Of a DNA stretch of 64,000 nt, positions 10,302 to 55,073 are shown piece after piece (the first letter of the stretch is position 1; each line of letters opens with the position of its first letter). The stretch is from Anaerolineales bacterium (GTDB taxonomy: Bacteria; Chloroflexota; Anaerolineae; Anaerolineales; UBA11579), in NCBI GenBank assembly GCA_026129335.1, contig JAHCIH010000001.1, positions 13,441 through 77,440 on the forward strand. The letters run 5' to 3'. The position numbers and the translations under genes are program-made. The notes under the pieces are model-generated. The model searched no databases. It was not told the origin of the DNA and saw only the letters and a program-made list of their open reading frames with translations.

Positions 10302-10402
10302 ATCTTGGCTTTGGTGAATAAACACGAGAACACCTACATACACAAAGAAATTAGATATGATATTGTTAACAATTGTTTATCAGGAATTGGAAGGTCCCAA
10401 GC

Positions 10403-10620: not shown

Positions 10621-12000
10621 ATGGCTGAACACAAGGTCACTGCCTCTTTCCGCGACCCCAGCGGTTTCGTTTTCATCCGCAACGGGGAGCTGTACCGCCA
10701 AGTCAATCAAAGCTACAAACCTGATTACGACCTGCTAAACCAATCCGGCCTCTATGAGGAGTTGGCCGCGGCGGGGTTGCTGATCCCACATCGCGAAGTC
10801 TCTGCCGCACCCACAGACAAAGCGCTGGCTTATAAGGTGCTGAGCCCGGAACGGGTCGGCTTCATTTCTTACGCGTACGAATGGTCTTTCAGCCAATTAA
10901 AAGACGCCGCTCTGCTAACCTTGGACTTGCAGAAGCGCGCCTTGGCGCGCGGCATGTGGTTGAAGGACGCCAGCAGCAGCAACATTCAATTCCACAACGG
11001 CCGTCCCATCCTTATTGACAGCTTGTCGTTCGAAACCTATCCAGAGGGACAGCCATGGACCGCCTATCGCCAGTTCTGCCAGCACTTTCTGGCTCCGCTG
11101 GCGTTGATGGCGTTGGTGGACGTGCGCCTGGGCCAGTTGCTGCGTAACCAGATCGACGGCATCGATCTGGATTTGTGTTCGCGGCTGCTACCCGGCTCCA
11201 CCCGACTGAATTCCGGTCTGCTGGTGCACATTCACGCGCATGCCTCAGCCCAGAAGCGCTATGCAGGGCGTTCTACGGCCACCGCAGCCGCCCGCGGTGG
11301 GATGGGCAAGACTGCCCTGCTTGGCTTAGTAGACCATTTGGAACGCACTGTCGCCAAGCTGCACTGGCAGCCGGCGGGCAGTGCTTGGGGCAACTACTAT
11401 TCAGAGACGAACTACAGCAATGTCGCCGAAACGCATAAGGCAGAACTGGTCGAAAATTATCTCAAGAAAACCAAACCCAGGACAGTGTGGGATATGGGGG
11501 CCAACAATGGCCTCTACAGTCGCATCGCCAGCCGCTTGGGCGCTTTCACCCTTTCACAGGATTACGACCCCGCCGCGGTAGAGCAGAACTACCTACAGGT
11601 CAAGGCCGACCAGGAAACTTCGCTGCTCCCTCTGTTGGTTGACTTGGCCAATCCCAGCGCGGCTTCGGGCTGGGCTAACCAGGAACGTTTGACACTGGTG
11701 CAGCGCGGCACTCCGGATGCGCTGATGGCCCTGGCGTTGGTGCATCATCTGGCCATTGGCAACAACCTGCCGCTGGCGCACATCGCCGAATTCCTCGCCA
11801 GCCTGGCTCCCTGGCTGGTTATCGAATTCGTCCCAAAGAGCGACTCGCAGGTGCAGCGCCTGCTGGCGGCGCGCAAGGACATCTTTGATGATTACACGCT
11901 AGACGGTTTTGCCAAGGCTTTTGGTCGGAAATTCAAAATTGAAGGGCAGGCCGATATCGCTGAGTCGGAACGCACTCTGTTTCTGTTAAAGCGCAAGTAA
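10621..12000 (+). CDS. Class I SAM-dependent methyltransferase (NoeA-like family)
   Basis: N-terminal FRDPSGFVF...LYRQV pattern and SAM-binding-like VWDMGANNGLYS in the C-terminal half. Confidence 0.65.
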   Translation: MAEHKVTASFRDPSGFVFIRNGELYRQVNQSYKPDYDLLNQSGLYEELAAAGLLIPHREVSAAPTDKALAYKVLSPERVGFISYAYEWSFSQLKDAALLTLDLQKRALARGMWLKDASSSNIQFHNGRPILIDSLSFETYPEGQPWTAYRQFCQHFLAPLALMALVDVRLGQLLRNQIDGIDLDLCSRLLPGSTRLNSGLLVHIHAHASAQKRYAGRSTATAAARGGMGKTALLGLVDHLERTVAKLHWQPAGSAWGNYYSETNYSNVAETHKAELVENYLKKTKPRTVWDMGANNGLYSRIASRLGAFTLSQDYDPAAVEQNYLQVKADQETSLLPLLVDLANPSAASGWANQERLTLVQRGTPDALMALALVHHLAIGNNLPLAHIAEFLASLAPWLVIEFVPKSDSQVQRLLAARKDIFDDYTLDGFAKAFGRKFKIEGQADIAESERTLFLLKRK

Positions 12001-13899: not shown

Positions 13900-16284
13900 C
13901 TACTGATTTCTAAAATACGCCACTGTTACCCCTTCGCCGCCTTCGTGCGGCAAGGCATAATCGTAGCGCTCTACATAGTTGCGCTTGCCCAGCTCTTTGC
14001 GCACCATGTCGCGCAGCACCCCCGTGCCCTTGCCGTGCACGATGCGGGCAGAGGGCAGCCCGGCGGCGTAGGCCTGGTCCAGATATCTGTCCAGCTGAGT
14101 GAGGGCGTCTTCGTAGCGCTGGCCGCGCAGCTGCAGTTCGGTGCCCGGCGACTGCGGCAGCGCCTGCACGCCGCTCCAGCCGCGCTCACTCTCGCCGTTG
14201 GGCGCGGCGCTATCGGGCAGCAGTTCCAGGTCGCCCAGCTTGGCGCGGGCACGCAGCGCGCCGATTTGCACCTCGGCGTCGCCCTCGCCCAGGGCGATGA
14301 CCACGCCGCGGTGGCCGAGGCTGCGCACCTGCACCAGGTCACCGAGGCGCAGCGGCCGGTCGGGCGCCGATTCGGGCACGGCCTGCCGACGAATGGGCGT
14401 CTCCAGGGGCTCTTCCAGGGTTTCGATCTCGCGCTGCACGACTTGCACGTCTTGCAGGGGTTGGCGGGCGCGGGCCAGTTGGGCACGCAGCTTGCCCGCC
14501 TCGGCGCGCAATGCTTCGAGTTCGGCTTGGGATTCTTTGCGAGCGGCTTCCAAGATTTCCAGCCGCTCGTCTTCGATGGCTTCCAGCCGCGCGGCCAGCT
14601 CGGCCTGCAGAGATTGCGCGGCGCGTTGCGCCTCTTCGGCCCGGGCGCGCGCCTGGCGGCTGCGTTCGCGCTCGCGGTGGATTTCATCCAGCAGGTCCTC
14701 GGAGCGCAGTTCATCCGGGTCAATGCTGCCGCGGGCTGCTTCGACGATCTCTTTGGGCAAGCCCAGTCGGGTAGCGATGGCCAGCGCATTGGAGCGGCCG
14801 GGCAAGCCGACCACCAAGTGATAGGTAGGCGCCAGAGTTTTCAAGTCGAACTCCACGCTGGCGTTGACCACGCCCGGGGTGGCGTGGGCGTAGTCCTTGA
14901 GTTCAGGATAGTGCGTGGCGACAAAGGTAGTGATGCCCGCTTTGACCAAATGGTCCAGTAGGCCGCGAGCCAGCGCGGCGCCTTCTTGCGGGTCGGTGCC
15001 GGCGCCCAACTCATCGAGGATGACCAGCGAACGCTGGTCGGCGGCCTTGAGGATGCGGATGATATTGGTGATGTGCCCAGAGAATGTGGAAAGCGATTGC
15101 TCGATAGATTGCTCGTCGCCGATGTCCGCATGCACCGCTTCGAAATACGAAAGCTGGCTGCCAACAGCAGTCGGAATGTGCAGGCCGCTCTGGCTCATCA
15201 GCGCCAGCAAGCCGACGGTCTTGAGCGTCACCGTCTTGCCGCCAGTGTTCGGCCCGGTGATGACGAGGCAATAGTTCTCGGGGAAAAGTTCGATATCCAG
15301 CGGGACCACACTCGCCGGGTCCAGCAGCGGGTGGCGTGCGCCAAACAGGCGGACCACCACGCCGGGGTGCCGTGCGCCTTCGGCGCGGGCAGGCTGCATG
15401 GCGAGCAACTCGACCGGCCGTGCGCCCAGCTCTTCAGCGTAGCGGGCGCGGGCGAAGTTGAGGTCGAGCTCAGCCAGGCCCTGCATCACTGCGGTGATGT
15501 CTTCGGCCTGTTGCGCCACCAGCGCGCTCAGTTCCATTAAGATACGTTTTTCCTCATCGCGCTCAGCCAGCTGCAGCTCGCGCCAGCGGTTGTTGAGTTC
15601 GACCACCTGCAAAGGCTCAATGAACAGGGTAGCCCCGGAAGAGGACTGGTCGTGGACCACGCCCTTGGCGCGCACCCGCGAGTCGGCCTTGATGGGCAGC
15701 ACATAGCGCCCGTCGCGTTGGGTGATGATGGGCTCCTGTAACGCCTTGGCGAAGGGCTCGCTAGTGAGCAGTTTTTGCATGCGGGCCAGCAGCCGTTCGT
15801 GGACCACGCCCAATTCGCTGCGAATGGAAGCCAATTTGGACGAAGCCGAATCGAGGATCTCGGCGCGGGGTGAGATGGCTTTGGTGATGGCATCCACCAC
15901 CCCCGCCGGGCTGGGCATGCGCGCAGCGATTTCGGCCAGCAGAGGCCGCTCGGCGGCCTCGTCAACCAACTGGCGAACCAGGGTGCGCCCAGCCACCAAG
16001 GTGCCTTTTACGTCGAGCAGCTCGTTGGCCGCCAGCGCTTGGCCGCGGCCGGCAGCACGCAGGTATTCGCGCATATCTCTGGCGCCACCCACGCCGATCT
16101 GCGGCTGGGCTTTCAGCAGTCCCCGTGCTTCGCCGGTCAGGGCCAGCCAACGCTGCGCTTCGGCCAGCGAAGCGGCCGGGCGCAGCGCGGCGGCCCGCTC
16201 CGCAGACAGGCTGAAGCTGGCATGGCGGGCCAGGCGCGCCAACACCTTGGGGAACTCCAGGGTTTGCAGGGCTTTTTCGTCCAT
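13900..16284 (-). CDS. mutS2: Endonuclease MutS2 (MutS domain + C-terminal Smr)
   Basis: Walker A GPNTGGKTVTLKTVG, long coiled-coil, C-terminal Smr (RIVHGKGTGVLR). Confidence 0.95.
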   Translation of the reverse strand: MDEKALQTLEFPKVLARLARHASFSLSAERAAALRPAASLAEAQRWLALTGEARGLLKAQPQIGVGGARDMREYLRAAGRGQALAANELLDVKGTLVAGRTLVRQLVDEAAERPLLAEIAARMPSPAGVVDAITKAISPRAEILDSASSKLASIRSELGVVHERLLARMQKLLTSEPFAKALQEPIITQRDGRYVLPIKADSRVRAKGVVHDQSSSGATLFIEPLQVVELNNRWRELQLAERDEEKRILMELSALVAQQAEDITAVMQGLAELDLNFARARYAEELGARPVELLAMQPARAEGARHPGVVVRLFGARHPLLDPASVVPLDIELFPENYCLVITGPNTGGKTVTLKTVGLLALMSQSGLHIPTAVGSQLSYFEAVHADIGDEQSIEQSLSTFSGHITNIIRILKAADQRSLVILDELGAGTDPQEGAALARGLLDHLVKAGITTFVATHYPELKDYAHATPGVVNASVEFDLKTLAPTYHLVVGLPGRSNALAIATRLGLPKEIVEAARGSIDPDELRSEDLLDEIHRERERSRQARARAEEAQRAAQSLQAELAARLEAIEDERLEILEAARKESQAELEALRAEAGKLRAQLARARQPLQDVQVVQREIETLEEPLETPIRRQAVPESAPDRPLRLGDLVQVRSLGHRGVVIALGEGDAEVQIGALRARAKLGDLELLPDSAAPNGESERGWSGVQALPQSPGTELQLRGQRYEDALTQLDRYLDQAYAAGLPSARIVHGKGTGVLRDMVRKELGKRNYVERYDYALPHEGGEGVTVAYFRNQ

Positions 16285-16760: not shown

Positions 16761-17423
16761 CTAATCGCTGTAGCTGCGCACTTCTTCTGGTGAGAAAGCC
16801 ACCTGTTCCTGCCCTTGCAGGCGCGCCTCCACTTTCTGGGCGATCAATTCCAGATGGCCGTTGTGCGCCACGAAGTCCATGTCGTCGGTGGGCACGATCA
16901 GCACCGGGCAGAAGGTGAGGTTGCTGATCCATTCCTCGTACAGCTCATTGAGCTGGATGAGGTACTGAGGGTCGATATTGCTCTCGAAGTCGCGCCCGCG
17001 CATGGCGATGCGCCGCTGCAGGGTGGGCAGCGAGGCGCGCAGGTAGATCACCAGATCGGGCGGGTGCAGCATATCGCAGAGCAGGTTGTAGAGCCGGCGG
17101 TAGGTGGCGTAGTCACGCTCGTTGATCTGTCCGGAGAGGAAAAGGTTCTTGGCGAAGATCTCGGCGTCTTCGTATACCGAACGGTCCTGCACCACGGATT
17201 TGGGGTCCGCCAGTAACGAGAGGTGCATGCGCAGGCGATGGCTGAGGAAAAAGACCTGGGAATGGAACGCCCAGGTCTTCATGTCGGCGTAAAAGTCGGA
17301 GAGGTAGGGGTTTTCGGCCACCGGTTCGTAGTAGGGCTGCCAGTCGAAGCGGGCGCATAACTTGTCCACCAAGGTGGATTTTCCAACGCCAATATTGCCC
17401 GCTATCGCTACGTACTGTTTCAC
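16761..17423 (-). CDS. Deoxynucleoside kinase
   Basis: P-loop IAGNIGVGKSTL. dAK/dGK-family pattern EPVAENPYLSDFY...FHSQVFFL. Confidence 0.85.
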   Translation of the reverse strand: MKQYVAIAGNIGVGKSTLVDKLCARFDWQPYYEPVAENPYLSDFYADMKTWAFHSQVFFLSHRLRMHLSLLADPKSVVQDRSVYEDAEIFAKNLFLSGQINERDYATYRRLYNLLCDMLHPPDLVIYLRASLPTLQRRIAMRGRDFESNIDPQYLIQLNELYEEWISNLTFCPVLIVPTDDMDFVAHNGHLELIAQKVEARLQGQEQVAFSPEEVRSYSD

Positions 17424-19817: not shown

Positions 19818-20951
19818 CTATTTGCCCAAATGCATGGGCATGATTACGTGCAAAAAGTCCTGGTCGCCCACCGGGCGGATGACGCCGGGGGCCGCCGCCG
19901 CGGTGGTCTCCAGTGCCACGTCGGACGCCTTCATCACATCCAATGCCTCGCGCAGGTAGCGCACGTTGAAGGCGATCAGGATTGCGTCGCCCTCGACCAC
20001 GGCGTCCATCTTGCTGTCGTTGGAGCCGGTTTCCTCGGACTGGGCGGAGATCTCCATCGTGCCGGGGGCGCTGCTTTCGCCGGGCTTGATGTCCAGGCGG
20101 GCGATGTGTGAACTTTCGCGGGCGAAGATCTCGGACTGCTTGGCGGCCTTGAGGAAAGCTTCGGCCGAGACGATGGTGCGGGTCTTGTAACCGTTGGGGA
20201 TGATCTGGCTGTATTCGGGGAAGGCACCCTCGACCAGCTGGCAGCGCAGTTCGGCGTTCTTGAGGCTGAAGACGATCTGGCCGCGGCCGGGCGGCAGCAT
20301 CATGTGGATCTGCTCTTTGTCGTCGGTAGCGATGCGGGCCAGCTCGTTGAGCGCCCGGGCGGGCACAATGGCGCGCATCGGCTGCTCCGCGGCGGCGGGC
20401 AGCTGCGCTTTGCGCACCGAGAGGCGGAAACCATCGGCGGCGGCCATGGTCATGGTATCGCCCTCGACGGTGAGCAGCACACCGGTGAGCACCGGGCGGG
20501 CGTCGTCACGCGAGGCGGCGAAGACCACCTGAGCGATCATCTCCTTGAAGTCGCCGGCGTTGAGTTCGATGCCGGCGGACTTGTCCGGCTCGGGCATTGG
20601 CGGGAACTCTTGCGCATCGATGCCTTTGATCTCCGCCCGGGAGCGCCCGGCGCTGAGCTGCAAGGTCTGGGTGCGCACGACCAGCTCCATCTGGATGGTG
20701 TCGTTGGGGAAGGTGGCCACCAGGTCGGCCAGGGTGCGCGCCGGCACGGTGGTGGCGCCGGGCTCTTCGATCTTGGCGCCGATCCAGGCGGTGATGCCCA
20801 GCTCTCGGTCGGTGGCCGAGAGCTTCAGGCGGCCGTCTTCGGCAGCCAAAAGCACGTTGGCCAGGATGGGGTAGGTGCTGCGCGCAGAAACGGCGCGCGA
20901 GACCACATTGAGCCCCTGTGCCAGATTTTCTTGAAGGACTGAGATCTTCAT
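19818..20951 (-). CDS. dnaN: DNA polymerase III beta sliding clamp
   Basis: ORF 19818..21068 trimmed to ATG 20951 (MKISVLQENLAQGLNVVSRAV). 377 aa three-domain clamp pattern. Confidence 0.9.
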   Translation of the reverse strand: MKISVLQENLAQGLNVVSRAVSARSTYPILANVLLAAEDGRLKLSATDRELGITAWIGAKIEEPGATTVPARTLADLVATFPNDTIQMELVVRTQTLQLSAGRSRAEIKGIDAQEFPPMPEPDKSAGIELNAGDFKEMIAQVVFAASRDDARPVLTGVLLTVEGDTMTMAAADGFRLSVRKAQLPAAAEQPMRAIVPARALNELARIATDDKEQIHMMLPPGRGQIVFSLKNAELRCQLVEGAFPEYSQIIPNGYKTRTIVSAEAFLKAAKQSEIFARESSHIARLDIKPGESSAPGTMEISAQSEETGSNDSKMDAVVEGDAILIAFNVRYLREALDVMKASDVALETTAAAAPGVIRPVGDQDFLHVIMPMHLGK

Positions 20952-21079
20952 AGAGCCGACTTGCGCGAAGTATACCGCGATTTGGCGCTGGCCCTGCAGC
21001 CGCACCGAGGAGCGGGTTGGGGGGTTGTATTCATTGCAGTTATCCTGCAAACCAAATTTTTGCGGCAAGGAGCGTAAAC

Positions 21080-24895: not shown

Positions 24896-26812
24896 CTAAG
24901 CTGCGCCTTTGGTTGCCTGGCTTCCAAGGATTGCCTGCACCGCTGTGGTGAACGACGCGGTCCAAAGCAGCAGGATGCCAGGCATCAGCATGCGGCTCAG
25001 ACCAGTAGTGACCCACCAACTGACATCCAGCGTGTCAGGATCATAAACTGTCATGTAATAGCTGCTAATCATGATTAGTAAGAAAACTAAGCCGCCACCA
25101 AGTAGCACCAAGTTGTCACGCGCAATTTTTGCTCGCAGCGAGAACGACAGGACCAGTGCCAGCAAAAAGAAGGCACTTAGCCCGCCCCATGAAGCCAATG
25201 AAGGCGTGAAGATGTAGTTGAAAGACTGCTGGACAACATAGAGTAATTCCATCCAATGGATACGGCCCGAGAGCAATGCAAGGACCCCTCCCCCAAGGAT
25301 GTTCTGGGCAAAACCAGGACCTGCATACACCAATGGGGCAAATACTTGCCACACAACCGTGTACAACACGAATGGCAGCGAGAACGCCAACCAGGTTGCG
25401 CGAAGTGCTTTGGAGTCAAATCGGCGCAAAAAGAGCAGCCAGCCAGCCAGTAGCACAGCGTTGATTGGTAGGCCCTCAGGCCGAGTCCAAGCGCCGAAAG
25501 CGAGGAAGATGCCAGCCACCCAAGCTGGTACTTCGGCCCTTTTCTCATTCAAAGACATGAGGGCAGAGAAAGCAGCCGCTATCAGGTAAAACGCGTAGGG
25601 AAGGTTGGCATATCCCAAGGTGGCGTGGGTGAAGAGCATTGGCGCCCCTCCCAGCAGAGCTACAGCCACCAGGGTCCAGAGACGGGGGAGCACCCGAGAG
25701 AGATATCCCGCCACCAGCAGCATCAATCCGGAGTGGAAGAAGGGAAAGAGTAGTTTTGATTCGGGCAACTGATCCCCAAACAGTTCTAAAAAGTTGCTGA
25801 TGTGGATAGGGATATTAAGGGGATATCGAGTAGTGGGCGTGCCCCACTGGCTAGCGCCAATTTGGAGACCTTTTGCTTCAATACCGTAACCTTTCGATGC
25901 CCAGAGCAGGAATTCATCGACATAAGAATAGCCTTTGCCTGCAGCAAAAAAAAGTTGCACTATGGTTAGCAAGGCGACGAACAAATACACTGGCCACCAG
26001 TTTGGCAAGTCGAGCCATTGTTTAAACCTCTCAAAGGAAGGTGTTTTTAGTCCCCTTAAAACAGGCACCCAAAGACCTACAGCAAGCAGCAAGATCAATC
26101 CCACACTTAACTCGACGCCCATTGCCAGTACTAAAAACACTAAAAACGAGTGGGCGGCAACAGCTCCCCCAAAACCAGTTGCGATGTGAAGTGGCGCCGA
26201 CCATTGGGGTGTTTTTTGAACTGTAAGTAGAATACCGGGAAGAGACAGGGACGTGAGAAATATCAGTGGAGGCAGAAAGGCCGCAAAAAACTGCAGGCCA
26301 TTTTCGTAATCGGTCCAAGTGGTTGAAGCCGGGCCAGGCACCAGGTTTGGATTTAAGAGGCCCCAGTTTTCATCGTAAGCGACATACCTCGAATCAGTTT
26401 CAACTTGTTCCAATGCGCCAGGTGAAGTGATCAGAGCGGGCGTTCCCTGCTCCAGCGCATTTTGCAGGCAAGCTACATAACTGGCGCCTGGGCAGTTATA
26501 AGGGTCTCGAGGGTAAAGAGAGAGCTTTAGATCCAGCGGCCGGGTCAAGTGGTGAGCACCTGTGTCTTCTCCGGTAAGGATGTGTGCGCTGCCTGATGTC
26601 AAGCTATCGATAAATTGAAAATAGCTCGCAGTATTGCGGTTATGTGTAAATCGGGCCGCCCGCCAGGCGCCAGATTTGCCTATATCTTGACGGATTAATC
26701 TCGCGATGGGGAAAAATTCTCGCCCCACCTGTATGAATTGCAGGACAATTAGCCCCATGCAAAGAATGAGAAATATTTTGTTTCCGTTCTTTTTATTCTT
26801 TAGATAGTCCAT
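24896..26812 (-). CDS. Polytopic integral membrane protein, possible GT-C-type glycosyltransferase (low GC)
   Basis: One N-terminal TM, an extracytoplasmic segment of about 140 aa, then at least 11 TM helices. Loop motifs YVDEFLLW and AWTRPEG are reminiscent of GT-C/PMT_2 enzymes. GC is visibly lower than in the flanks. Confidence 0.6.
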   Translation of the reverse strand: MDYLKNKKNGNKIFLILCMGLIVLQFIQVGREFFPIARLIRQDIGKSGAWRAARFTHNRNTASYFQFIDSLTSGSAHILTGEDTGAHHLTRPLDLKLSLYPRDPYNCPGASYVACLQNALEQGTPALITSPGALEQVETDSRYVAYDENWGLLNPNLVPGPASTTWTDYENGLQFFAAFLPPLIFLTSLSLPGILLTVQKTPQWSAPLHIATGFGGAVAAHSFLVFLVLAMGVELSVGLILLLAVGLWVPVLRGLKTPSFERFKQWLDLPNWWPVYLFVALLTIVQLFFAAGKGYSYVDEFLLWASKGYGIEAKGLQIGASQWGTPTTRYPLNIPIHISNFLELFGDQLPESKLLFPFFHSGLMLLVAGYLSRVLPRLWTLVAVALLGGAPMLFTHATLGYANLPYAFYLIAAAFSALMSLNEKRAEVPAWVAGIFLAFGAWTRPEGLPINAVLLAGWLLFLRRFDSKALRATWLAFSLPFVLYTVVWQVFAPLVYAGPGFAQNILGGGVLALLSGRIHWMELLYVVQQSFNYIFTPSLASWGGLSAFFLLALVLSFSLRAKIARDNLVLLGGGLVFLLIMISSYYMTVYDPDTLDVSWWVTTGLSRMLMPGILLLWTASFTTAVQAILGSQATKGAA

Positions 26813-26877
26813 TTTATGGGAACAGATTTCACTCGATTGTGACCCTCTAATTTTAGCGTATCAACAACGCGGGTAAG

Positions 26878-28704
26878 TTATTTGTCGCCTGTTCCTTCGG
26901 CCAATTTGCGGCTCTCTTCGATGTAGGCCAAGCTTTGGTGGCGGAAGTAGGTGTTGTACAGGCCGGCATAGTGGCCGCCAGCGGCCAGCAGGCCGTCGTG
27001 GTCGCCTTCTTCAATGATGTGGCCTTGCTGCAGCACAATGATGCGGTCGGCGGCTTTGACCGTGGACAAGCGGTGGGCGATAAGGATGCTGGTGCTCTCT
27101 TTGAGGATCAGATCGAGGGCCTGCTGAATCTGCCATTCGGTGAAGGGGTCGATGCTGGCGGTGGCCTCATCAAGGATGAAGATGGATGGGCGCTGCACCA
27201 GCACGCGCAACAAAGAGACCAACTGGCGTTGGCCCATGGAAAGACGTCCGCCGCGTTCGCCCACCTCGGTCGCGAGGCCATCCGGCAAGGTTTCCAGCCA
27301 TTCGCCGTCGCCAATCTTGCGCGCCAATTCCAGGATCTCGGCTTCCTGGATATCCGGCCGCGCGTAACGGATGTTATCGGCGACGCTGCCGGCGAACAGG
27401 AACGGTATCTGCGAGACGATGCCCAGCTGGCGACGGTACTGCGCCAGGTCCAGGGTGCGGATGTCGCGGCCGTCCACCAGCAGGCGGCCTTCCTGGAACT
27501 CGTAGAAGCGGGCGACCAGTTTGGCGATGGACGATTTGCCCGCGCCGGTGTGGCCAACCAGAGCGACGTTCTCGCCGGGCTTCACATGCAGGCTGAAGTC
27601 GTTGAGCACGGTCTCGCGCTCGGTATAGCGAAAGGTGATGTTCTCGAAGAGGATGTCGCCGCGCAGCCGGCCCACCGGTTCGCTGGCAGTCTGCACCACC
27701 TTGGGGTCGGCATCAATGAGTGCAAAGGAGCGCTCGGCAGCGGAGAGGCCAGACTGCAGCTGCGTCCAGAACGAAGACAGGTTGAGCACCGGGAAGAAAA
27801 AGCGGTCCAGGCTTTGCAGGAAGAGGAACCAGGCGCCGGCGGTGATGACGCCGTTGACCACATTGAGGCCGCCGACATAGAGGAGCAGGCCGGTGCCCAG
27901 CGCAGCCAGCGCATTCAGCGTGGGGAAAACCGCCGAGAGCACAAAGCCGCGGCGGATATTGACGCTGAACGAACTGCGGTTGGCGTCGTCGAACTCCTCG
28001 AAGATCATGGCTTCCTGGCGGAAGTTCTTGGCCACGGCGATGCCGCTGATGGTCTCTTTGATGGCTGCGTTGACGTTGCCCATGGCGCGCATGCCGCGCT
28101 GCGTGGTGCGCCGCGCCGCGGCGCGGAAGGCCACAGCGGCGAAATAAAAGAAGGGCAGTTGGGCGAACAACAGTAGGGAGAGAAAGCCCTGCACGAAAAT
28201 CAGGCTGACGCCCAACAGCAGCGCCAGGCCGAACTGCGCAATCAGGTCGGTGATCAGCACGATCATGTCGCCGAAGTCACGCGTATCGGAAGTGATGCGC
28301 GAGAGTACCTTGGCCGAGGGGTTGTCGTCGTAGAACGAAAGGTCGTGGGCCGCAGCGGCGCGGAAGCCGTCCTGGCGAATGGCCATGACTACATCGCCGA
28401 TGACGCGGGCAGTCAGGCGGCGGCGCCACCAGTTGGTGACCCAGATCAACACGCCGGAAACCAACATCACCACGGTGACGATGAGAATTTCGGTGCTGCT
28501 GACCTCATCGCCCACCAGGTCCAGGGCGCGGGCGAGCAGCAGCGGCACCGCAGCGCCGGAGAGCGCGGTGAACAACGCGGTGAGGCCGATGGTCAGCATG
28601 GACCCGCGGTGCGGGCCGAAGTAGTGCGCCATACGGCCGAGCAGCTGCCGGTCGGTGTACTGGCGGTCGTAGGCCTCTACGTCAAGTCCGGAAAAGAAAC
28701 CCAT
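26878..28704 (-). CDS. ABC exporter, fused permease/ATPase (MsbA/MdlB-like), partner 2
   Basis: Six-TM domain plus GHTGAGKSS, LSMGQRQL, IFILDEATASID. Confidence 0.9.
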   Translation of the reverse strand: MGFFSGLDVEAYDRQYTDRQLLGRMAHYFGPHRGSMLTIGLTALFTALSGAAVPLLLARALDLVGDEVSSTEILIVTVVMLVSGVLIWVTNWWRRRLTARVIGDVVMAIRQDGFRAAAAHDLSFYDDNPSAKVLSRITSDTRDFGDMIVLITDLIAQFGLALLLGVSLIFVQGFLSLLLFAQLPFFYFAAVAFRAAARRTTQRGMRAMGNVNAAIKETISGIAVAKNFRQEAMIFEEFDDANRSSFSVNIRRGFVLSAVFPTLNALAALGTGLLLYVGGLNVVNGVITAGAWFLFLQSLDRFFFPVLNLSSFWTQLQSGLSAAERSFALIDADPKVVQTASEPVGRLRGDILFENITFRYTERETVLNDFSLHVKPGENVALVGHTGAGKSSIAKLVARFYEFQEGRLLVDGRDIRTLDLAQYRRQLGIVSQIPFLFAGSVADNIRYARPDIQEAEILELARKIGDGEWLETLPDGLATEVGERGGRLSMGQRQLVSLLRVLVQRPSIFILDEATASIDPFTEWQIQQALDLILKESTSILIAHRLSTVKAADRIIVLQQGHIIEEGDHDGLLAAGGHYAGLYNTYFRHQSLAYIEESRKLAEGTGDK

Positions 28705-28705
28705 A

Positions 28706-30481
28706 TCACTCGCTAAAAATGCGCCGGTAGGCTTTGGAGGTCTTCATCAGTTCTTCGTGACTGCCCGCCGCCACCAGTTTGCCGCTGCGCAGCACCAAAA
28801 TCTGGTCGGCCCAGCGGATTTGTGAAAGGCGGTGGGTGATGATCAGCGTGGTGCGGTCACGCGCTGCGGCGTAAATGGCACGCTGGATCAGGTCTTCCGT
28901 GGCGCTGTCGATGGCGCTGGTCGAATCGTCGAGGATGAGCACGGCCGGGTCGGTGAGGAAGGCGCGGGCCAACGCCACGCGCTGGCGCTGCCCGCCGGAG
29001 AGGGTCACGCCGCGGTCGCCCACGATGGTGTCGTAGCCGTCCTTGAATTCCATGATGAATTCGTGCGCCTGGGCCTGTTTGGCGGCACGCTCGATATCTT
29101 CACGGCTGGCGTTGCGCACGCCAAAGGCGATGTTCTCGGCCAGGCTGCGCGAGAACAAGAAAATATCCTGCTCGATGATGGAAATTTGCTGGCGCAAGGA
29201 CTCCAGGTTCCACTCGCGCACATCCACGCCGTCCACCAACACCTGGCCGCTGGTGACGTCGTAGGTGCGGTTGACCAGCTTGGCCAGCGAGGTCTTGCCC
29301 ACACCGGTCTGGCCCACGATGGCCACGGTCTGCCCGGCGGGGATGGTGAACGAAACGTTCTCCAGAGCCGGGTCACCGATTTCGTAAGTGAAGGTGACGT
29401 CACGGAACTCAATGTTGCCCTTCATCTTGGCCTGCTGGCCGCCCAGGTTCTGATCCAGGTCGGTTTCGCGGTTGATCAGCTCCAATATGCGGCCAGAGCT
29501 GGCCACACCCAGCGAGACTTGCGAATAAGCGAACAGCGAGGTGAACACGGGGAAGCCGAAGAGCTGCAGCAAGCCGAAGTAGGCGATGACATCACCCATC
29601 ACCAACTCGCCGCGCTGGAAAAGCGTGAGCGAGTGCCACAGACCACCGGCCTGCGCCAGGCCCATCAGCAACATGGGCAGAAAGCGCGCCTCCAGGTACC
29701 CCTGCTTCACAAAAGCATCGCGGAAGCGGCGCACGTTGCGGGCGAACAGCGAGACCTCAGACTCTTCCTGGGACATGCCTTTGACGGTCTCGATGCCATC
29801 CAGCGCTTCGGAGAGGCGCGAGTTGAGCGCGCCGAAGCTGGCGCGCACCTCGCGGGTCACCGGGGCCATCTGCACCAGGTAGTGCCAGATGGCCAGGGCG
29901 TAGGCGATGGTGAAGAGCAGCGGAGTGAGCACCAGATGGGGGTGGATGGGGTACGCCGCGGCAATTGGACCGAACAAAAAGAAGGCTGCGCCGATGACCA
30001 GGTTTAGGCCCGGGTTGAACATCAGGTTGATTTCGCGCACATCGTTGGTGGCGCGGGCCATGGTGTCGCCCACCGATTGCAGGCTGTGGAAGGTCATGCT
30101 CTTGCCGAGCAGGTTGACATACAGCTCCTCGCGCACGTCGCGCTCGAAGAGCTGGCCGAGCCATTCGGCGCCGAAATTGCGGGCGAACTGCAGCACGCTG
30201 CGGATGGTTTGGCTGACCAACAGCAGCACGACCAGGTCCCAGAGCAGGTCGAGCCGGTCGGGAGTCCGGGTGATGACCTCATAGGCATCGCCGATGATGA
30301 CCGGCACATAGGTGGCCAGGGCGCCGTTGGTCAGCGCGCCGATGAGCAACATGACCGTCAGCGGCCAATAGTGGAACAGGCGGGAGAACAGCCATGGCAA
30401 CGGGGCGCGGCGGTTGGTAGGGTAACGTTCGGGCAGTGTAAATTCTGCCGCGTGCTGAGCGGGAAGACTGTTGGTTGCCAT
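28706..30481 (-). CDS. ABC exporter, fused permease/ATPase (MsbA/MdlB-like), partner 1
   Basis: ORF 28706..30574 trimmed to ATG 30481. GQTGVGKTS, LSGGQRQRVALARA. Stop lies 1 nt from the next start, suggesting a heterodimer pair. Confidence 0.9.
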   Translation of the reverse strand: MATNSLPAQHAAEFTLPERYPTNRRAPLPWLFSRLFHYWPLTVMLLIGALTNGALATYVPVIIGDAYEVITRTPDRLDLLWDLVVLLLVSQTIRSVLQFARNFGAEWLGQLFERDVREELYVNLLGKSMTFHSLQSVGDTMARATNDVREINLMFNPGLNLVIGAAFFLFGPIAAAYPIHPHLVLTPLLFTIAYALAIWHYLVQMAPVTREVRASFGALNSRLSEALDGIETVKGMSQEESEVSLFARNVRRFRDAFVKQGYLEARFLPMLLMGLAQAGGLWHSLTLFQRGELVMGDVIAYFGLLQLFGFPVFTSLFAYSQVSLGVASSGRILELINRETDLDQNLGGQQAKMKGNIEFRDVTFTYEIGDPALENVSFTIPAGQTVAIVGQTGVGKTSLAKLVNRTYDVTSGQVLVDGVDVREWNLESLRQQISIIEQDIFLFSRSLAENIAFGVRNASREDIERAAKQAQAHEFIMEFKDGYDTIVGDRGVTLSGGQRQRVALARAFLTDPAVLILDDSTSAIDSATEDLIQRAIYAAARDRTTLIITHRLSQIRWADQILVLRSGKLVAAGSHEELMKTSKAYRRIFSE

Positions 30482-30577
30482 TAATTTATCGTTGGAGTCG
30501 AGCAGCTTGGAGTGGCCTTGCTGCACAGGCGCCGAAGTTCTAGGATACCACAGCGCGCTTTGCAGCGCGGGCAATGC

Positions 30578-37685: not shown

Positions 37686-38375
37686 CTACTCCACAAGCTG
37701 CAGTGTATCCCCCGGCTTGAGCACATGCGCTTGGGCAGATGTTTCCGCGGAGACGCGCTGCGCCCAGGCATCCGGGTCCTGCTCGATGAGGTCCCAGGTG
37801 CCGTAGTGATAGGGCATCACCTGCTTGGGCTCCAGCAATTTCACCGCGCGCAGGGCATCGTCCGGCCCCATGGTGAAGTAATCACCAATTGGCAGAACCG
37901 CCAGGTCCACACCTTCTTCGCCGATCAGGCGCATATCGCCAAACAAGGCCGTATCGCAGGCGAGATAGATCTTGCGGCCTTTAGGCGAGGTGAGCAGGAA
38001 GCCGACCGCACAACCCCCATAGCTGCCATCGGGCATTTGCGAGCCGTGCACCGCCACGGTGAGCTTGACCTTGCCGAAGGGCAGAGACAGCTGCCCGCCC
38101 AGGTTCAAGCCGTGAGTTTGCACGCCCTGCTTCTCCAGCCAGCCGGCCACCTCCAGGGTGGTGATCACCGGCGCACCGGTGTGCTCGGACAGGGCGACAG
38201 CATCGGCAATGTGATCGTTATGTCCATGGCTGACCAAAATATAGTCAGCGGCCACAGTTTCTGACGTCGCTTCGGTCGTAGGGTTGTCGGCAAAGAAAGG
38301 GTCTACCACCACGGTATAACCGCCAATATTGACGGCCAGCGTGGCATGGCCTATCCAGGTTAGAGAGAGGGTCAT
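37686..38375 (-). CDS. MBL-fold metal-dependent hydrolase (UPF0173-like)
   Basis: WIGHATL N-terminus, HGHNDH metal motif, SD AAGGAG upstream. Confidence 0.85.
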   Translation of the reverse strand: MTLSLTWIGHATLAVNIGGYTVVVDPFFADNPTTEATSETVAADYILVSHGHNDHIADAVALSEHTGAPVITTLEVAGWLEKQGVQTHGLNLGGQLSLPFGKVKLTVAVHGSQMPDGSYGGCAVGFLLTSPKGRKIYLACDTALFGDMRLIGEEGVDLAVLPIGDYFTMGPDDALRAVKLLEPKQVMPYHYGTWDLIEQDPDAWAQRVSAETSAQAHVLKPGDTLQLVE

Positions 38376-38386
38376 CGCACGGCTCC

Positions 38387-38446
38387 TTTTGAATTAATCA
38401 TTCCTCTATTTTAGAGTATGTTTTACTTAATTAGTCTTCTTAGTAG
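38387..38446. other. AT-rich stretch (about 23% GC by hand count), DUE-like
   Basis: ttttgaattaatcattcctctattttagagtatgttttacttaattagtcttcttagtag has 14 G/C in 60 nt, within a high-GC context. Confidence 0.6.
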
Positions 38447-38450
38447 GCCC

Positions 38451-38728
38451 TGTGGATATGGGGATTAGTCCACTTGACTCGGTACTCTTCACCGGATACG
38501 CCACTGCTGTGAGCATAGACCCCATATATACGGAAAGAGCCCGGAAATCTTTTCAACAAGCGGAAAGGCACGGAACGCTAATTTCTTCGGATAAAGAAAG
38601 AAGAGATCGCAGAAGACAAAAAGAAGCCCGGTTATCCGCAGCTCCCCCACAAATACGACGGATAACTTTCTCCCCGCCCAGCCAGTGAACCAACCTATTA
38701 TCCCCAGCTAGACCCTAGGTTATCCACA
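38451..38728. other. Cluster of six DnaA-box-like 9-mers (candidate oriC / DnaA-binding region)
   Basis: TGTGGATAT 38451-59 (rc ATATCCACA). rc TTATCCGAA 38586-94. TTATCCGCA 38632-40. rc TTATCCGTC 38657-65. TTATCCCCA 38698-706. Perfect TTATCCACA 38720-28. All confirmed through overlapping ORF-track translations. Confidence 0.55.
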
Positions 38729-38770
38729 GCAAGAGCAAGGGTTACACACAGTTGCTGATATGCTTGGGCA

Positions 38771-39664
38771 ATGGCCTCTTCCCCTGAACGACAATCCGAG
38801 ACACGCGCTATTTGGCAAGCCCTTTTGGTGACCATCCTGTGGGCTTCGTCCTGGGTGTTGATTAAATTTGGCCTGGGCAACATCCCGCCATTGACCTTCG
38901 CCGGCCTGCGCTACACACTGGCCTTCGCCCTGCTGCTGCCGCTGCTGCTGCGCGGCGGGAGACTCGCCGAGCTGCGCAGCCTTTCACGGACAGACCTGGG
39001 CTGGCTGGCATTGCTCGGCTTGGTTTACTACAGCCTGACTCAGGGCCTGCAGTTCGTCGGCCTGGACCTGTTGCCGGCCAATACACTCAGCCTGATGCTC
39101 TCACTAAGCAGCCTGACCATCGCCCTGGCCGGCTATTGGCTGCTGGCCGAGCGACTCAACGGGCTGCAGTGGGCCGGCGTGCTGGTCGCCATCGCCGGGG
39201 CGCTGATCTACTTCGGCAGCGCCGAGGGGCTGGTAGGCCTCGGCCTGTTGGTGGGCGTGCTGGCGGTGCTGGCCAACACGGCCGGTGCCATCCTGACCCG
39301 CGGGGTGAACCGCAGCGCGCGCATCTCGCCGCTGGTGGTCACTGTGGTCAGCATGGGTATCGGCTCGCTCACGCTGCTGGCCGCCGGAGTGTTCAGCGAG
39401 CCGTGGCCGCAGCTGACGCTGCAGGATTGGCTGATCATCCTGTGGCTGGCAGCGGTCAACACCGCTTTTGCCTTCACCCTGTGGAACCGCGCCATGCAGG
39501 TGCTCTCGGCGGCGCAGGCCAGCGTGATCAACAACACCATGCTGATCCAGATCGCCATCCTGGCCTGGCTCTTCCTGGGTGAGCGCCCCGGCGGCTGGCA
39601 GCTGCTGGGCCTGGGCGTGACCGCGCTGGGCACCATGATGGTGAACTTGCGCCCGCGCCGCTAA
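38771..39664 (+). CDS. EamA/DMT-family transporter
   Basis: Ten predicted TM helices in two EamA-like halves, 297 aa. Confidence 0.85.
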   Translation: MASSPERQSETRAIWQALLVTILWASSWVLIKFGLGNIPPLTFAGLRYTLAFALLLPLLLRGGRLAELRSLSRTDLGWLALLGLVYYSLTQGLQFVGLDLLPANTLSLMLSLSSLTIALAGYWLLAERLNGLQWAGVLVAIAGALIYFGSAEGLVGLGLLVGVLAVLANTAGAILTRGVNRSARISPLVVTVVSMGIGSLTLLAAGVFSEPWPQLTLQDWLIILWLAAVNTAFAFTLWNRAMQVLSAAQASVINNTMLIQIAILAWLFLGERPGGWQLLGLGVTALGTMMVNLRPRR

Positions 39665-46726: not shown

Positions 46727-47512
46727 GTGCGAAAGCAGCTTCAACGCCGCCAGGCCACCAAAGACCAAAAGCACCAACCCCGCGGCGAGCCAAGTGTAGT
46801 TGAGCGGAGTCTGGTTGGAAAGGTAATAACCCTGGTTGTCCTGCTTCACTTCGTATACCGGCGCGGCCAAGCCAGCGAACAACACACCACCCAGCAACCC
46901 GCCCAGGTGGCCCCAGCCATCAATTCCCGGGCTGAGACTGATTAGAAGGTTGATCAAGGCGATGTTGAGGATATTGCGCAGCACCGCCTGGCCCTGTGCG
47001 CCAAAAATCCCCAGGTTGCGATAAATGAAGACGGCATGCGCGCCGAGCATCCCGAAGATGGCCGAGGAGGCGCCCAGCGACGGGTTGTCGTTGAACAGGA
47101 ACGAAAGCACCACCCCGGCGAATCCGGTGAATATGTAGAGCGCCAGGAAAGTGAAGTGACCGTAGTGGTGCTCCACCTCGGGGCCGAGCGCATAGAGCGC
47201 GTACATGTTGAAACCAATGTGCAGCAGGCTAGCGTGCAGCAGCATGGGCGTGAACAGCCGCCACCATTCGCCGGCCAGGATCAGTTCGTTGATTTTCAGG
47301 CCCCAGCATGCCGGCAGGTTGCCGCAGGCCACCCCGCCGGCGACCAGGCTCGGGTCCTGTGTGCCCAACTGCAGAATGAAGACCAGCACGGTGATGCCCA
47401 GCAGCGCATAGGCGACCAGTGGCCGCCCGCCCCGGCGGCTGTGCACTTCGATCTGGGTGGGTTCATTGGATTCGGGGAACTGCGGATCGCTGCCCGGCGC
47501 CGGCTGGCTCAC
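46724..47512 (-). CDS. Rhomboid family intramembrane serine protease
   Basis: HIGFNM, catalytic GASSAIFG, and GHLGGLLGG motifs in TM helices. Confidence 0.85.
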   Translation of the reverse strand: MSQPAPGSDPQFPESNEPTQIEVHSRRGGRPLVAYALLGITVLVFILQLGTQDPSLVAGGVACGNLPACWGLKINELILAGEWWRLFTPMLLHASLLHIGFNMYALYALGPEVEHHYGHFTFLALYIFTGFAGVVLSFLFNDNPSLGASSAIFGMLGAHAVFIYRNLGIFGAQGQAVLRNILNIALINLLISLSPGIDGWGHLGGLLGGVLFAGLAAPVYEVKQDNQGYYLSNQTPLNYTWLAAGLVLLVFGGLAALKLLSH

Positions 47513-48132
47513 AGGTTGACCCGCCGGGGCTGCACGCGATGGTGCTCGGCTTCGATGATCGCCTGGATGGTATCCACCGTTTTGTCCAACTCATCGTCGC
47601 CGTTGACCACGATGTAGTCGAACTCATTGATGCGCTTGAACTCCTGGCGGGCAGTGGCGATGCGCAGCTTGAGGTCTTCGGCGGTTTCCGTCTTGCGGCT
47701 TTCCAAGCGCTGCACCAGTTCTTCTTCGCTGGAGGTGGTCAGGAAGATGAGGATGGCTTCCGGCGAGATCTTGCGTACAGTGGCGGCTCCTTGAACGTCC
47801 ACGCGCATCACCACATCCTGCCCGCTTTCCAGCGCTTTGCGCACCTGCACTTTAGGGATGCCCTTATAGTCCCCGTAGACCAGGGCGTATTCCAGCAGCT
47901 CGTTCTGGTCGATCATGCTGGCAAATTCTTCGCGGCTGACGAAGATGTAATCCACCCCGGCGCGCTCCTCGGGGCGCTGTGGCCGTGTAGTGGCAGTGAC
48001 CACGAAGTGGAACGGCAGGCCGCGCTCCTTCATGCGCTGGAGCACGCTGTCTTTGCCCACGCCAGAGGGGCCGGAAATGATGATCAACAGGGGCGCTTTG
48101 GGCGGCCCGAATTCGGGGTTGTGCTCGGCCAT
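47509..48132 (-). CDS. gmk: Guanylate kinase
   Basis: P-loop GPSGVGKDS, TTRPQRPEE..GVDY. Confidence 0.95.
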   Translation of the reverse strand: MAEHNPEFGPPKAPLLIIISGPSGVGKDSVLQRMKERGLPFHFVVTATTRPQRPEERAGVDYIFVSREEFASMIDQNELLEYALVYGDYKGIPKVQVRKALESGQDVVMRVDVQGAATVRKISPEAILIFLTTSSEEELVQRLESRKTETAEDLKLRIATARQEFKRINEFDYIVVNGDDELDKTVDTIQAIIEAEHHRVQPRRVNL

Positions 48133-48179
48133 GTGCTGACCCCATTATAAAGGCCGCGGGCCGCAGCCGCCCAGGCTGG

Positions 48180-48800
48180 CTAGCCCGCCTGTGGCAGCCG
48201 CGCCAGCACCGCTTGCTGCAGGGCTGCCGCCACCGCCTCCGGCGGCTGGGCGGCGTCCACCACTGCCCAGCGATCCGGCTCGGCGGCGATGAGTTCCAGG
48301 TAGCCGGCGCGCACCCGGCGGTGGAAATCCAGCGCGTAGTCGTCCAGCCGGTTCCAGTCGCCGTCCTTGTCGCGGCGTTTGAGGCCGGCTTCCACGTCGA
48401 TGTCCAGGAATAAGGTCAGGTTGGGCTGCAGGCCGCCGGTGGCGAAGCGAACGATCTCGCGCAGCTGGGCCAGGTCCATCCTGTGGCCGTAGCCCTGGTA
48501 GGCCAGCGTGCTGTCCGCATAGCGGTCGCAGAGCACGATCTGTCCATCCGCCAGAGCCGGGCGGATGACGGTTTCCACCAATTGGGCGCGCGAGGCCTGG
48601 AAGAGCAGGATTTCACTGCGCGGGTGCATTTCCTTGTTCTTCAGGTCGAAGAGCACCCCGCGGATCTGGTCGCCGATGGGTGTGCCCCCGGGCTCTCGGG
48701 TGGCCAGCACCCGGTGGCCCTGGGCGCGCAGGAAATCGGCCAGGCCGGGCAGCTGCGTGGTCTTGCCGCTGCCCTCCGGCCCTTCCAGGGTGATGAACAT
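48180..48800 (-). CDS. tmk: Thymidylate kinase
   Basis: MFITLEGPEGSGKTTQ, DRY motif (CDRYADS). Confidence 0.95.
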   Translation of the reverse strand: MFITLEGPEGSGKTTQLPGLADFLRAQGHRVLATREPGGTPIGDQIRGVLFDLKNKEMHPRSEILLFQASRAQLVETVIRPALADGQIVLCDRYADSTLAYQGYGHRMDLAQLREIVRFATGGLQPNLTLFLDIDVEAGLKRRDKDGDWNRLDDYALDFHRRVRAGYLELIAAEPDRWAVVDAAQPPEAVAAALQQAVLARLPQAG

Positions 48801-53588: not shown

Positions 53589-55073
53589 TTATAGGCTTCG
53601 ACTACTGCCCATCGAAGGGAAAATCCACTCTTCTTTGAATTCCTCCCGCAGCAGGCGCAAATAGTACAGGGCTTCTTTGTTGGGTAATGCGTAGTTCCAT
53701 TCATGCAAGAGGTGACCGCGCTCTGCCTCAAAAACCTCGTCCGAGATATGTTGCTCAAACAGATTCACCAAAGCCTCTGATGAACCAGCGCCTTGTGAGA
53801 ATTTTTGTTTGCGCCGGTTAACGATTTCATTGGGCAAGTCATCCTCAAACGCCTGGCGCAACAAGAATTTGGCTTGCTTGTCTTCATGCACCTTCCATTC
53901 AGCGGGTAGCCCCAGGCCTAGAGCTACAGACTCTACATCCAGAAAGGGCACACGCGCTTCCAAGCCGTGAGCCATGGCGATCCGGTCGGCACGCTGCAGG
54001 TTGGTGTTGTGCAGTGCTGCAGTAATATCTACCATCTCTTGCTGTAGCAGGTCGGGGTTTTGATAGTCTCGCAAATAGTCATAACCGGCGTAAATTTCAT
54101 CGGCTCCTTCGCCGGTTAGGATGACTTTGACGTGCTCGGCAGCCATTTCGGCCAGAAAGTAATTCGGGATGGCCGAGCGCACCAACGCCGGGTCAAACGA
54201 TTCGAGGTGATAAAGCACCTCCGGCAGCACGCGCAACATGTCCGCGTTGGAATAAATACGCTGGTGGTGAATGGTATTGAGCTCCGAAGCCATCTGTGCC
54301 GCCGCGGCCAAGTCTGGGCTGCCCGGCATGCCTACGGCGAAAGAGTGCAGAGGCTCATCGCCCTGGTTGGCCAACAGGGCAACGATGCTGCTATCCAATC
54401 CCCCGCTCAGGCTTATTCCCACGGGCACATCGGCCAGTAAGCGTTTTTGGACCGCGCCGCCCAACACCTCCCGAATGGCTTCCGCTGCGCTGGCTTGCGT
54501 TTCAATCTCCAAATGGGCTGGAGCAATTTGATAATATGCCTGCCAGCCTTGCCGGGAGTGATACCAGTGCCCCGCGGGGAATTCACGGATGTGATCGGTT
54601 GCTTCGGCCAGCGCTTTGATTTCTGAAGCGAAGTAAAGCGCGCCATTATGACGGCCGCAATAGAGCGATTTGATGCCCAATGGGTCGCGTGCAATGAACA
54701 ATTCATTTCCATCCAAAATGGCAAAGGCAAACATGCCGTCAAGCAGCTCCACACAGGTGGGGCCAAATTTCTTGTACAAGTGCAGAATGACCTCGGTGTC
54801 GCTAGTGGTCTTTAGCGAGACACCTTGAAGATGTTTGGCGGCTAACTGGCGATAATTGTAGATTTCGCCATTAAAAGTGATCCAGCTTTCACCTGCCTCC
54901 ATCGGCTGGTGTCCCCCATCCACATCCAAAATCGCCAAGCGGGTGTGACCCAGTGTTCCTTTTGGCAGGTTTTTTAGGCCTTGCCCATCTGGACCGCGGT
55001 GGGCAAGTTTTGTGAGCATTCGATTGACTTGGTCTGGGGATTGTTCGCCATATACACCGGCGATTCCACACAT
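53589..55073 (-). CDS. asnB: Asparagine synthase (glutamine-hydrolysing), low GC
   Basis: N-terminal nucleophile MCGIAGVYG, PP-loop SLSGGLDSS, SD AAAGGAGG upstream. GC is visibly lower than in the neighbours. Confidence 0.95.
   Translation of the reverse strand: MCGIAGVYGEQSPDQVNRMLTKLAHRGPDGQGLKNLPKGTLGHTRLAILDVDGGHQPMEAGESWITFNGEIYNYRQLAAKHLQGVSLKTTSDTEVILHLYKKFGPTCVELLDGMFAFAILDGNELFIARDPLGIKSLYCGRHNGALYFASEIKALAEATDHIREFPAGHWYHSRQGWQAYYQIAPAHLEIETQASAAEAIREVLGGAVQKRLLADVPVGISLSGGLDSSIVALLANQGDEPLHSFAVGMPGSPDLAAAAQMASELNTIHHQRIYSNADMLRVLPEVLYHLESFDPALVRSAIPNYFLAEMAAEHVKVILTGEGADEIYAGYDYLRDYQNPDLLQQEMVDITAALHNTNLQRADRIAMAHGLEARVPFLDVESVALGLGLPAEWKVHEDKQAKFLLRQAFEDDLPNEIVNRRKQKFSQGAGSSEALVNLFEQHISDEVFEAERGHLLHEWNYALPNKEALYYLRLLREEFKEEWIFPSMGSSRSL

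Follow-up and report, generated by a model that had tools for sequence, protein, structure and literature searches.

The locus considered here raises the question of whether a 395-bp spacer between two divergent genes of an Anaerolineales bacterium, which carries an array of DnaA boxes next to an AT-rich stretch, serves as the chromosomal replication origin. The initial annotation had favored a box array with an unwinding element, that is, a candidate oriC. Analysis of the entire 64-kb stretch of DNA (hereafter the window) and of homologous loci in relatives supported this view: the spacer carries the parts of a known type of unwinding module in their proper order, its boxes exceed chance, and the module is conserved, is accompanied by an empty region upstream of dnaA in a relative, and recurs in distant lineages. 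We estimate a probability of roughly 75% that the spacer is the chromosomal oriC and is unlinked to both dnaA and dnaN. Most likely, it is an ordinary DnaA-dependent origin; no Anaerolineae origin was described in the literature searched. The spacer, its flanking genes and the nearest classical replication gene are positioned as follows.

37686-38375, minus strand: MBL-fold metal-dependent hydrolase gene (Pfam Lactamase_B_2), hereafter the MBL gene
38376-38770, no strand assigned: candidate oriC, the whole intergenic spacer, 395 bp
38771-39664, plus strand: EamA transporter gene (Pfam EamA), divergent from the MBL gene
19818-21068, minus strand: dnaN (sliding clamp), with all three DNA_pol3_beta domains, 17.4 kb from the spacer

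The spacer has a GC content of 47%, compared with 62.9% window-wide. No family matched it in an Rfam search of 38376-38770, and a scan for sigma-70 promoters and terminators returned nothing above chance and no convincing promoter or terminator. The parS consensus was unmatched with up to three mismatches allowed, and no classical origin-linked element, dnaA and parS included, lies beside the spacer. The proteins of the window have their best named homologues in Anaerolineales MAGs, and its genes include the housekeeping genes dnaN, gatCAB, tmk, gmk and mutS2. As a separate observation, genes of DNA-precursor and DNA metabolism flank the spacer on both sides at distances of up to ~25 kb, namely those for a deoxynucleoside kinase, guanylate kinase and thymidylate kinase, along with dnaN and mutS2 (16761-17423, 47509-48800, 19818-21068, 13900-16284).

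DnaA boxes were scored against the consensus TTATCCACA, with mismatches counted per 9-mer on both strands. The spacer contains four matches with at most one mismatch, eight with at most two, and one more with three, listed here from left to right.

38451-38459, minus strand: ATATCCACA, member of a tandem pair nearest the triplets described below, one mismatch, invariant in 5/5 aligned relatives
38459-38467, minus strand: TAATCCCCA, upstream member of the tandem pair at an 8-nt offset, two mismatches
38550, plus strand: match to TTATCCACA with two mismatches, by mismatch count
38586-38594, minus strand: weak box TTATCCGAA, two mismatches
38632-38640, plus strand: TTATCCGCA, one mismatch
38657-38665, minus strand: weak box TTATCCGTC, three mismatches, TTATCC core intact
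38698-38706, plus strand: TTATCCCCA, one mismatch, first of three same-orientation boxes at 22-bp spacing
38720-38728, plus strand: perfect box TTATCCACA, no mismatch, position kept in relatives L082 and L088
38742-38750, plus strand: weak box TTACACACA, two mismatches, with a perfect box at the aligned position in L082

The four matches at 8-9 of 9 positions that had been reported, including the perfect copy, were recovered at 38451 (minus), 38632, 38698 and 38720 (all plus), and at the best sites the match spans the whole 9-mer and a following G (TTATCCnCAG). The TTATCC core, said earlier to recur six times, is present in five exact copies out of 11 in the window, the sixth spacer site reading ATATCC. 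Four of the nine boxes with at most one mismatch in the whole 64 kb fall within the spacer. Among 5000 dinucleotide-preserving shuffles of the spacer, none reached four boxes at this threshold (mean 0.08) and none reached eight boxes with at most two mismatches (mean 1.1), an excess over chance of the kind expected at an oriC. The start codon of EamA lies 43 bp beyond the perfect box, and that of the MBL gene 76 nt beyond the tandem pair.

Next to the tandem pair, on the side of the MBL gene, the spacer is occupied by three further elements.

38387-38446, no strand assigned: AT-rich stretch with 14 G/C per 60 nt, the proposed DNA unwinding element, also containing the MBL gene's 5' leader and probable promoter
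38423-38446, minus strand: DnaA-trio-like triplets CTA CTA AGA AGA CTA ATT AAG TAA, aligned with the array of relative L093
38447-38450, minus strand: GC-rich 4-nt spacer GGGC between box pair and triplets, in position and length as in the unwinding systems of Bacillus subtilis, Deinococcus radiodurans and Geobacter sulfurreducens

The count of only 14 G/C in 60 nt, noted at the outset, is exact and is the lowest of any 60-nt stretch in the window; the stretch abuts the box pair and triplets, as an AT-rich unwinding element directly beside the boxes of an oriC should, and contains a -10-like TAAAAT. Read along the minus strand, the parts follow each other as TAATCCCCA-TATCCACA-GGGC-CTA CTA AGA AGA CTA ATT and then AT-rich DNA, which, judged by sequence, is the layout of an origin basal unwinding system (BUS). 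The BUS, which is known from B. subtilis oriC and has been predicted for most origins of bacteria, consists of one or two DnaA boxes, a short and usually GC-rich spacer and DnaA-trios (3'-GAT-5', or CTA when read on the box strand), followed by AT-rich DNA (PMC6669920, PMC8287927). The published search program accepts a box with at most two mismatches and an optional second box with at most four, a gap of 0-16 bp from box to first trio, and at least three consecutive trios of the form 3'-NAN-5', which is NTN on the box strand (PMC8287927). The box pair of the window lies within these limits (ATATCCACA with one mismatch and TAATCCCCA with two, at an 8-nt offset), as does the 4-nt spacer GGGC. 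The triplets fall short of them, since CTA CTA is followed by AGA AGA, leaving two consecutive NTN triplets and four of the first six that fit.

For comparison with known systems, the sequences in Table S1 of PMC8287927, which are printed as the complementary strand, were converted to the box strand. In this form, the BUS of B. subtilis reads TTATCCACA-AATCCACA-GGCC-CTACTATTACTTCTACTA, starting CTACTA, and the predicted BUSs of G. sulfurreducens PCA and D. radiodurans R1 read TTATCCCCA-TATCCACA-GCCC-CTACTG and TTTTCCACA-GTATCCACA-GGCC-CTACTACTG, respectively (PMC8287927). The G. sulfurreducens core is nearly identical to that of the window, and all three modules agree with the window in the order of parts, the 8-nt box offset and the 4-nt GC spacer. 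The order and orientation of parts are those of B. subtilis oriC (incC; DnaA-boxes 6 and 7, GC cluster, DnaA-trios and AT-rich 27-mer; PMC6669920, PMC8287927), and the two share the tandem boxes offset by 8 nt, the 4-nt GC spacer, the CTA CTA start and the AT-rich stretch that comes next. However, B. subtilis has six consecutive canonical triplets against two in the window, the upstream box of the pair is the stronger one in B. subtilis and the weaker one in the window, and the B. subtilis module lies between dnaA and dnaN whereas that of the window does not.

Loci fetched for comparison, 1.42 Mb in total, were scanned for tandem boxes followed by a spacer of 2-6 nt and at least two leading triplets, and such modules were found only in the window clade (L082, L083, L087 and L088), at L061, L066 and L093, and in two probable chance matches. 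As a positive control, exact matches to TATCCACAG[GC]3CTACTA were collected from metagenome contigs, giving 120 stretches, 118 of which could be evaluated. A tandem second box was present in 83/118 and AT-rich DNA came next in 76/118. With crude tblastn probes, dnaA was detected in the same stretch in 32 cases and dnaN in 36, almost all at most 1 kb from the match; where the match was flanked by 1.5 kb or more on each side, dnaA or dnaN lay within 3 kb in 16/38 stretches. Because the matches keep the tandem box, the AT-rich DNA and a nearby dnaA or dnaN, the BUS signature appears to mark origins. The third triplet departed from NTN in 44 of the 118 (37%), being CGA in 17 and AGA in five. Separately, a Desulfobacterales MAG locus contains a BUS-like match (L052:12061; TGATCAACA-ATATCCGCA-TCGCC-CTA TTA TTT) ~6.8 kb from its MBL homologue, which may be a chance occurrence or the origin of that organism.

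The candidate element is present at the same syntenic position in L082, L083, L087, L088 and L093, as would be expected of an oriC, and the conservation on which the initial annotation had staked its reading was thus borne out. In the window clade, where MBL proteins are 84-86% identical to that of the window, the spacers are mostly unalignable with the window's, while the 35-nt module has been kept with one variable triplet base. The block ATCCCCATATCCACAGGGnCTAnTAAGAAGACTA, which sits immediately before the AT-rich stretch, is identical in the window and all four relatives, and the first 15 nt of the triplet array are invariant across the clade bar that one base. The AT-rich stretch is largely conserved in L082, L083 and L087, and boxes on the EamA side have kept their positions, though with some turnover. 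The EamA gene itself is syntenic in L082, L083, L088 and L093. The window-clade module had no exact match among JGI metagenome contigs.

L093, located on a 488-kb ENA contig, encodes an MBL protein 65% identical to that of the window, with full synteny over 20 kb and a 399-bp spacer in the same place. The EamA side of this spacer contains two perfect boxes, two with one mismatch and two with two, the first three of them 20-21 bp apart. Beside the MBL gene lies a canonical BUS with six consecutive trios, TATGCCACA-TATCCCCA-GGTT-CTA CTA ATA CTA CTA ATT. The triplets of the window align position for position with the CTA CTA ATA CTA CTA ATT AAC TAA of L093, differing at trios 3 and 4.

Origin-like clusters occur within ~2 kb of MBL homologues in L061, L066, L074, L082 and L093. 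The first three of these represent distant Chloroflexota lineages, in which a box array plus BUS accompanies the MBL homologue among different neighbors, with the main array on the strand opposite the BUS in each. In L066, dnaN is followed by about ten TTATCTACA-type boxes, the module TTATCTACA-GTTTCTACA-GCCC-CTA CTA AGG CTA CTA, a histidine-kinase gene and the MBL gene. The L074 array comprises over ten boxes of the TTTTGAACA or TTTTCGACA type and precedes a BUS (GCCC-CTA CTA CGA CTG CTA) ~150 bp upstream of the MBL gene. The order in L061 is MBL gene, MFS gene and a 1.1-kb spacer, which holds GAATCCACA-ATATCAACA-GCC-CTA CTA CTA CGA CTA along with three perfect boxes spaced by 20-21 bp. In addition, a second motif, TTATCCCAA(A), is present in three to four copies per origin-like spacer at L066:6662-7175 and L074:9390-9985, both from lineages with divergent DnaA boxes (TTATCTACA and TTTTGAACA types); another origin-binding protein may recognize it, or it may represent a low-affinity class of box.

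The association with the MBL gene has its limits. Boxes are absent from L090, whose MBL protein is 66% identical and whose upstream gene is different. A scan of a genome collection with the MBL protein gave 80 loci, the closest relative having 62% identity, and most of these more distant loci lack any box cluster less than 10 kb away, indicating that the association is limited to some lineages. The cluster therefore behaves as an element in its own right, frequently but not invariably found next to the MBL gene. Elsewhere in L090 (16673-20122), genes for a DnaB helicase, a DnaD-like protein (PF07261) and a DnaI/IstB-like ATPase are found together, 6-10 kb from the MBL gene.

As stated initially, dnaA is missing from the window: it was found neither by Pfam nor by tblastn, the latter with an approximate B. 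subtilis DnaA sequence as query, which proved an adequate probe in that it recovered a Chloroflexota dnaA fragment with E = 4.5e-30. The separation from dnaN, first put at ~17.5 kb, was measured as 17.4 kb. A 459-aa ORF of DnaA-like length (10621-12000) was considered as dnaA and rejected, as it has no Pfam match. The flanks of dnaN in the window are free of boxes, as are the AT-rich patches at 10315-10395 and 26756-26831, and no other box cluster was found in the 64 kb of the window, at dnaN, or at the dnaA gene on the L093 contig. This dnaA gene (locus L094) lies 192 kb from the L093 spacer, and the 673-bp region upstream of it has neither a box with at most one mismatch nor a BUS. The richer cluster beside dnaA that would have spoken against the spacer was thus not seen in this relative. 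The upstream regions of dnaA at L095 and L096 likewise lack boxes with at most one mismatch.

Some lineages may nevertheless keep a dnaA-linked cluster. On an Anaerolineae-type contig, L097:5560-5880 has six boxes with at most one mismatch, three of them perfect, upstream of dnaA and followed by AT-rich DNA, with no BUS detected by the scan. The presence of boxes at L097 versus their absence at L094-L096 suggests that the origin, or the autoregulation sites of dnaA, differ between lineages. In L021, dnaA is 9.5 kb from the MBL gene. A further observation on these long contigs is that dnaA is split into two ORFs (L094:10001-11366, L095:6001-7353, L096:6001-7336 and L097:6001-7372), most likely through an assembly frameshift error, the contigs perhaps being long-read assemblies. 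A search for DnaA proteins returned truncated proteins partly because of this splitting, and many other matches were annotated as partial.

Linkage of an origin to dnaA or dnaN, which is common but not universal, is thus not seen at the spacer. Genome records conventionally begin at dnaA, and automatic origin predictions tend toward its neighborhood. E. coli oriC (gidA/mnmG-mioC) and the dnaN-linked origins of cyanobacteria are likewise unlinked to dnaA. Like the window locus, they lie between genes transcribed into or away from the unwinding element and have box arrays of opposite orientation on two sides; unlike it, E. coli oriC has other flanking genes and a differently organized unwinding element. 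The BUSs of Geobacter and Deinococcus are located at ~1.5 kb, near the start of their genome records, in contrast to the window module, which is far from dnaA. For Anaerolinea thermophila, the BUS listed near the beginning of the genome record scores a weak 7 (PMC8287927), which suggests an example of a database prediction placing the origin beside dnaA.

GC skew keeps its sign across the spacer in the window (~+0.05 to the left, +0.03 to the right), L093 and L082, and the minus-to-plus changes at the L061, L066 and L074 clusters are confounded with gene orientation. Third-position (GC3) skew ranges from -0.10 to -0.17, C3 exceeding G3 on the coding strand of almost all genes, on either side and on either strand. 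Consequently, skew on the plus strand of the window tracks gene orientation, the cumulative-skew minimum near 12 kb having the same explanation, and this codon-driven excess would mask a replication signal at the 64-kb scale. GC skew was therefore not accepted as decisive. Nor is there a flip in gene orientation at the spacer, in agreement with the initial annotation: 18 consecutive minus-strand genes lie on the left, and on the right the minus strand again carries 19 of 25 genes. According to published values for three Chloroflexi, only 51-53% of genes are on the leading strand, so that this test has little power in the group.

The initial annotation held a DnaA-regulated promoter or a DnaA-titration site to be an equally live reading, and both now appear clearly weaker. 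If the spacer were a DnaA-controlled divergent promoter, its boxes repressing or activating the MBL operon and/or EamA and its AT-rich stretch being only promoter and leader, this would suit the placement of boxes over both likely promoter regions (43 bp from the EamA start and 76 nt from the MBL start), the -10-like TAAAAT and the absence of a skew switch. Yet the boxes did not stay with the promoter across relatives: they are absent from L090 even with an MBL protein 66% identical, the L061 cluster is downstream of the MBL and MFS genes, and a histidine-kinase gene intervenes in L066. The boxes are thus dispensable for regulation of the MBL gene, as L090 indicates, and, given most of the 80 loci as well, the cluster does not act like an MBL operator. 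Since it also leaves the module of box pair, GC spacer and CTA triplets and its invariance unexplained, we regard a promoter role as unlikely.

A non-origin cluster that titrates or recycles DnaA, with the true oriC elsewhere, is improbable to a similar degree. DnaA-box clusters away from dnaA are known in E. coli (datA, DARS1/2) and B. subtilis, and in model bacteria such clusters exist away from oriC; neither skew nor orientation switches at the spacer, and the evidence on other clusters is limited to the 64-kb window of this genome. However, the clusters of the datA, DARS and B. subtilis type have no module of box pair, GC spacer and trios beside an AT-rich stretch, whereas the window locus does, and titration sites are not known to need either the module or the stretch. 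The empty region upstream of dnaA in the syntenic relative, the empty flanks of dnaN in the window and the homologous cluster beside dnaN in L066, a classical origin position, all speak against titration as well. It is very improbable that the array serves another regulator with a TTATCC core or arose by chance in an AT-richer spacer. Only this core is common to all sites, at least three of which have 2-3 mismatches, but none of the 5000 composition-matched shuffles reached the observed count, the best sites continue through the full 9-mer and G, perfect 9-mers occur in the relatives L093, L082 and L061, and no Rfam family matches the spacer.

For the spacer as chromosomal oriC, we propose a course of initiation in which DnaA binding, unwinding and origin firing are modeled on the BUS of B. 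subtilis. DnaA would bind the plus-strand boxes near EamA (38632-38750, three of them 22 bp apart) as well as the tandem minus-strand pair (38451-38467). DnaA-ATP would then form a filament reaching from this pair across the GC spacer to the CTA-CTA triplets, opening the neighboring AT-rich stretch of 60 nt (38387-38446) as the site of helicase loading. Such an origin would overlap the divergent promoters of the MBL and EamA genes.

A broader proposal, which we advance tentatively and consider doubtful, is that in a family-level group of Anaerolineae, the origin has moved off both dnaA and dnaN and tracks the MBL gene, and that the same group has an interrupted-trio module (CTA CTA AGR ... CTA nTA) under strict purifying selection. 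If so, the register or length requirement of the DnaA single-strand filament would differ from that of B. subtilis, and published database predictions that place Anaerolineae origins beside dnaA would not hold for this group. As for the spacer itself, an origin there leaves the general view of how bacteria initiate replication unchanged. Being unlinked to dnaA and having a recognizable unwinding module, it would give read-depth estimates of growth rate a reference point in these abundant and mostly uncultured bacteria of wastewater and sediment, and would be a starting point for replicating vectors. In addition, the interrupted triplets offer a natural DnaA-trio variant for asking how many contiguous trios unwinding needs.

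Two other features of the window deserve mention. At 24896-30574, a 638-aa ORF without a Pfam match, in a patch of ~51% GC, adjoins two ABC exporter genes. All three are missing from the otherwise syntenic L093, so that the segment looks like an insertion between gatB and a trypsin-like protease gene. The asparagine synthase gene at 53589-55073, in a patch of ~55% GC, has a third-position GC of 0.60 compared with ~0.8 in its neighbors and may have been horizontally acquired.
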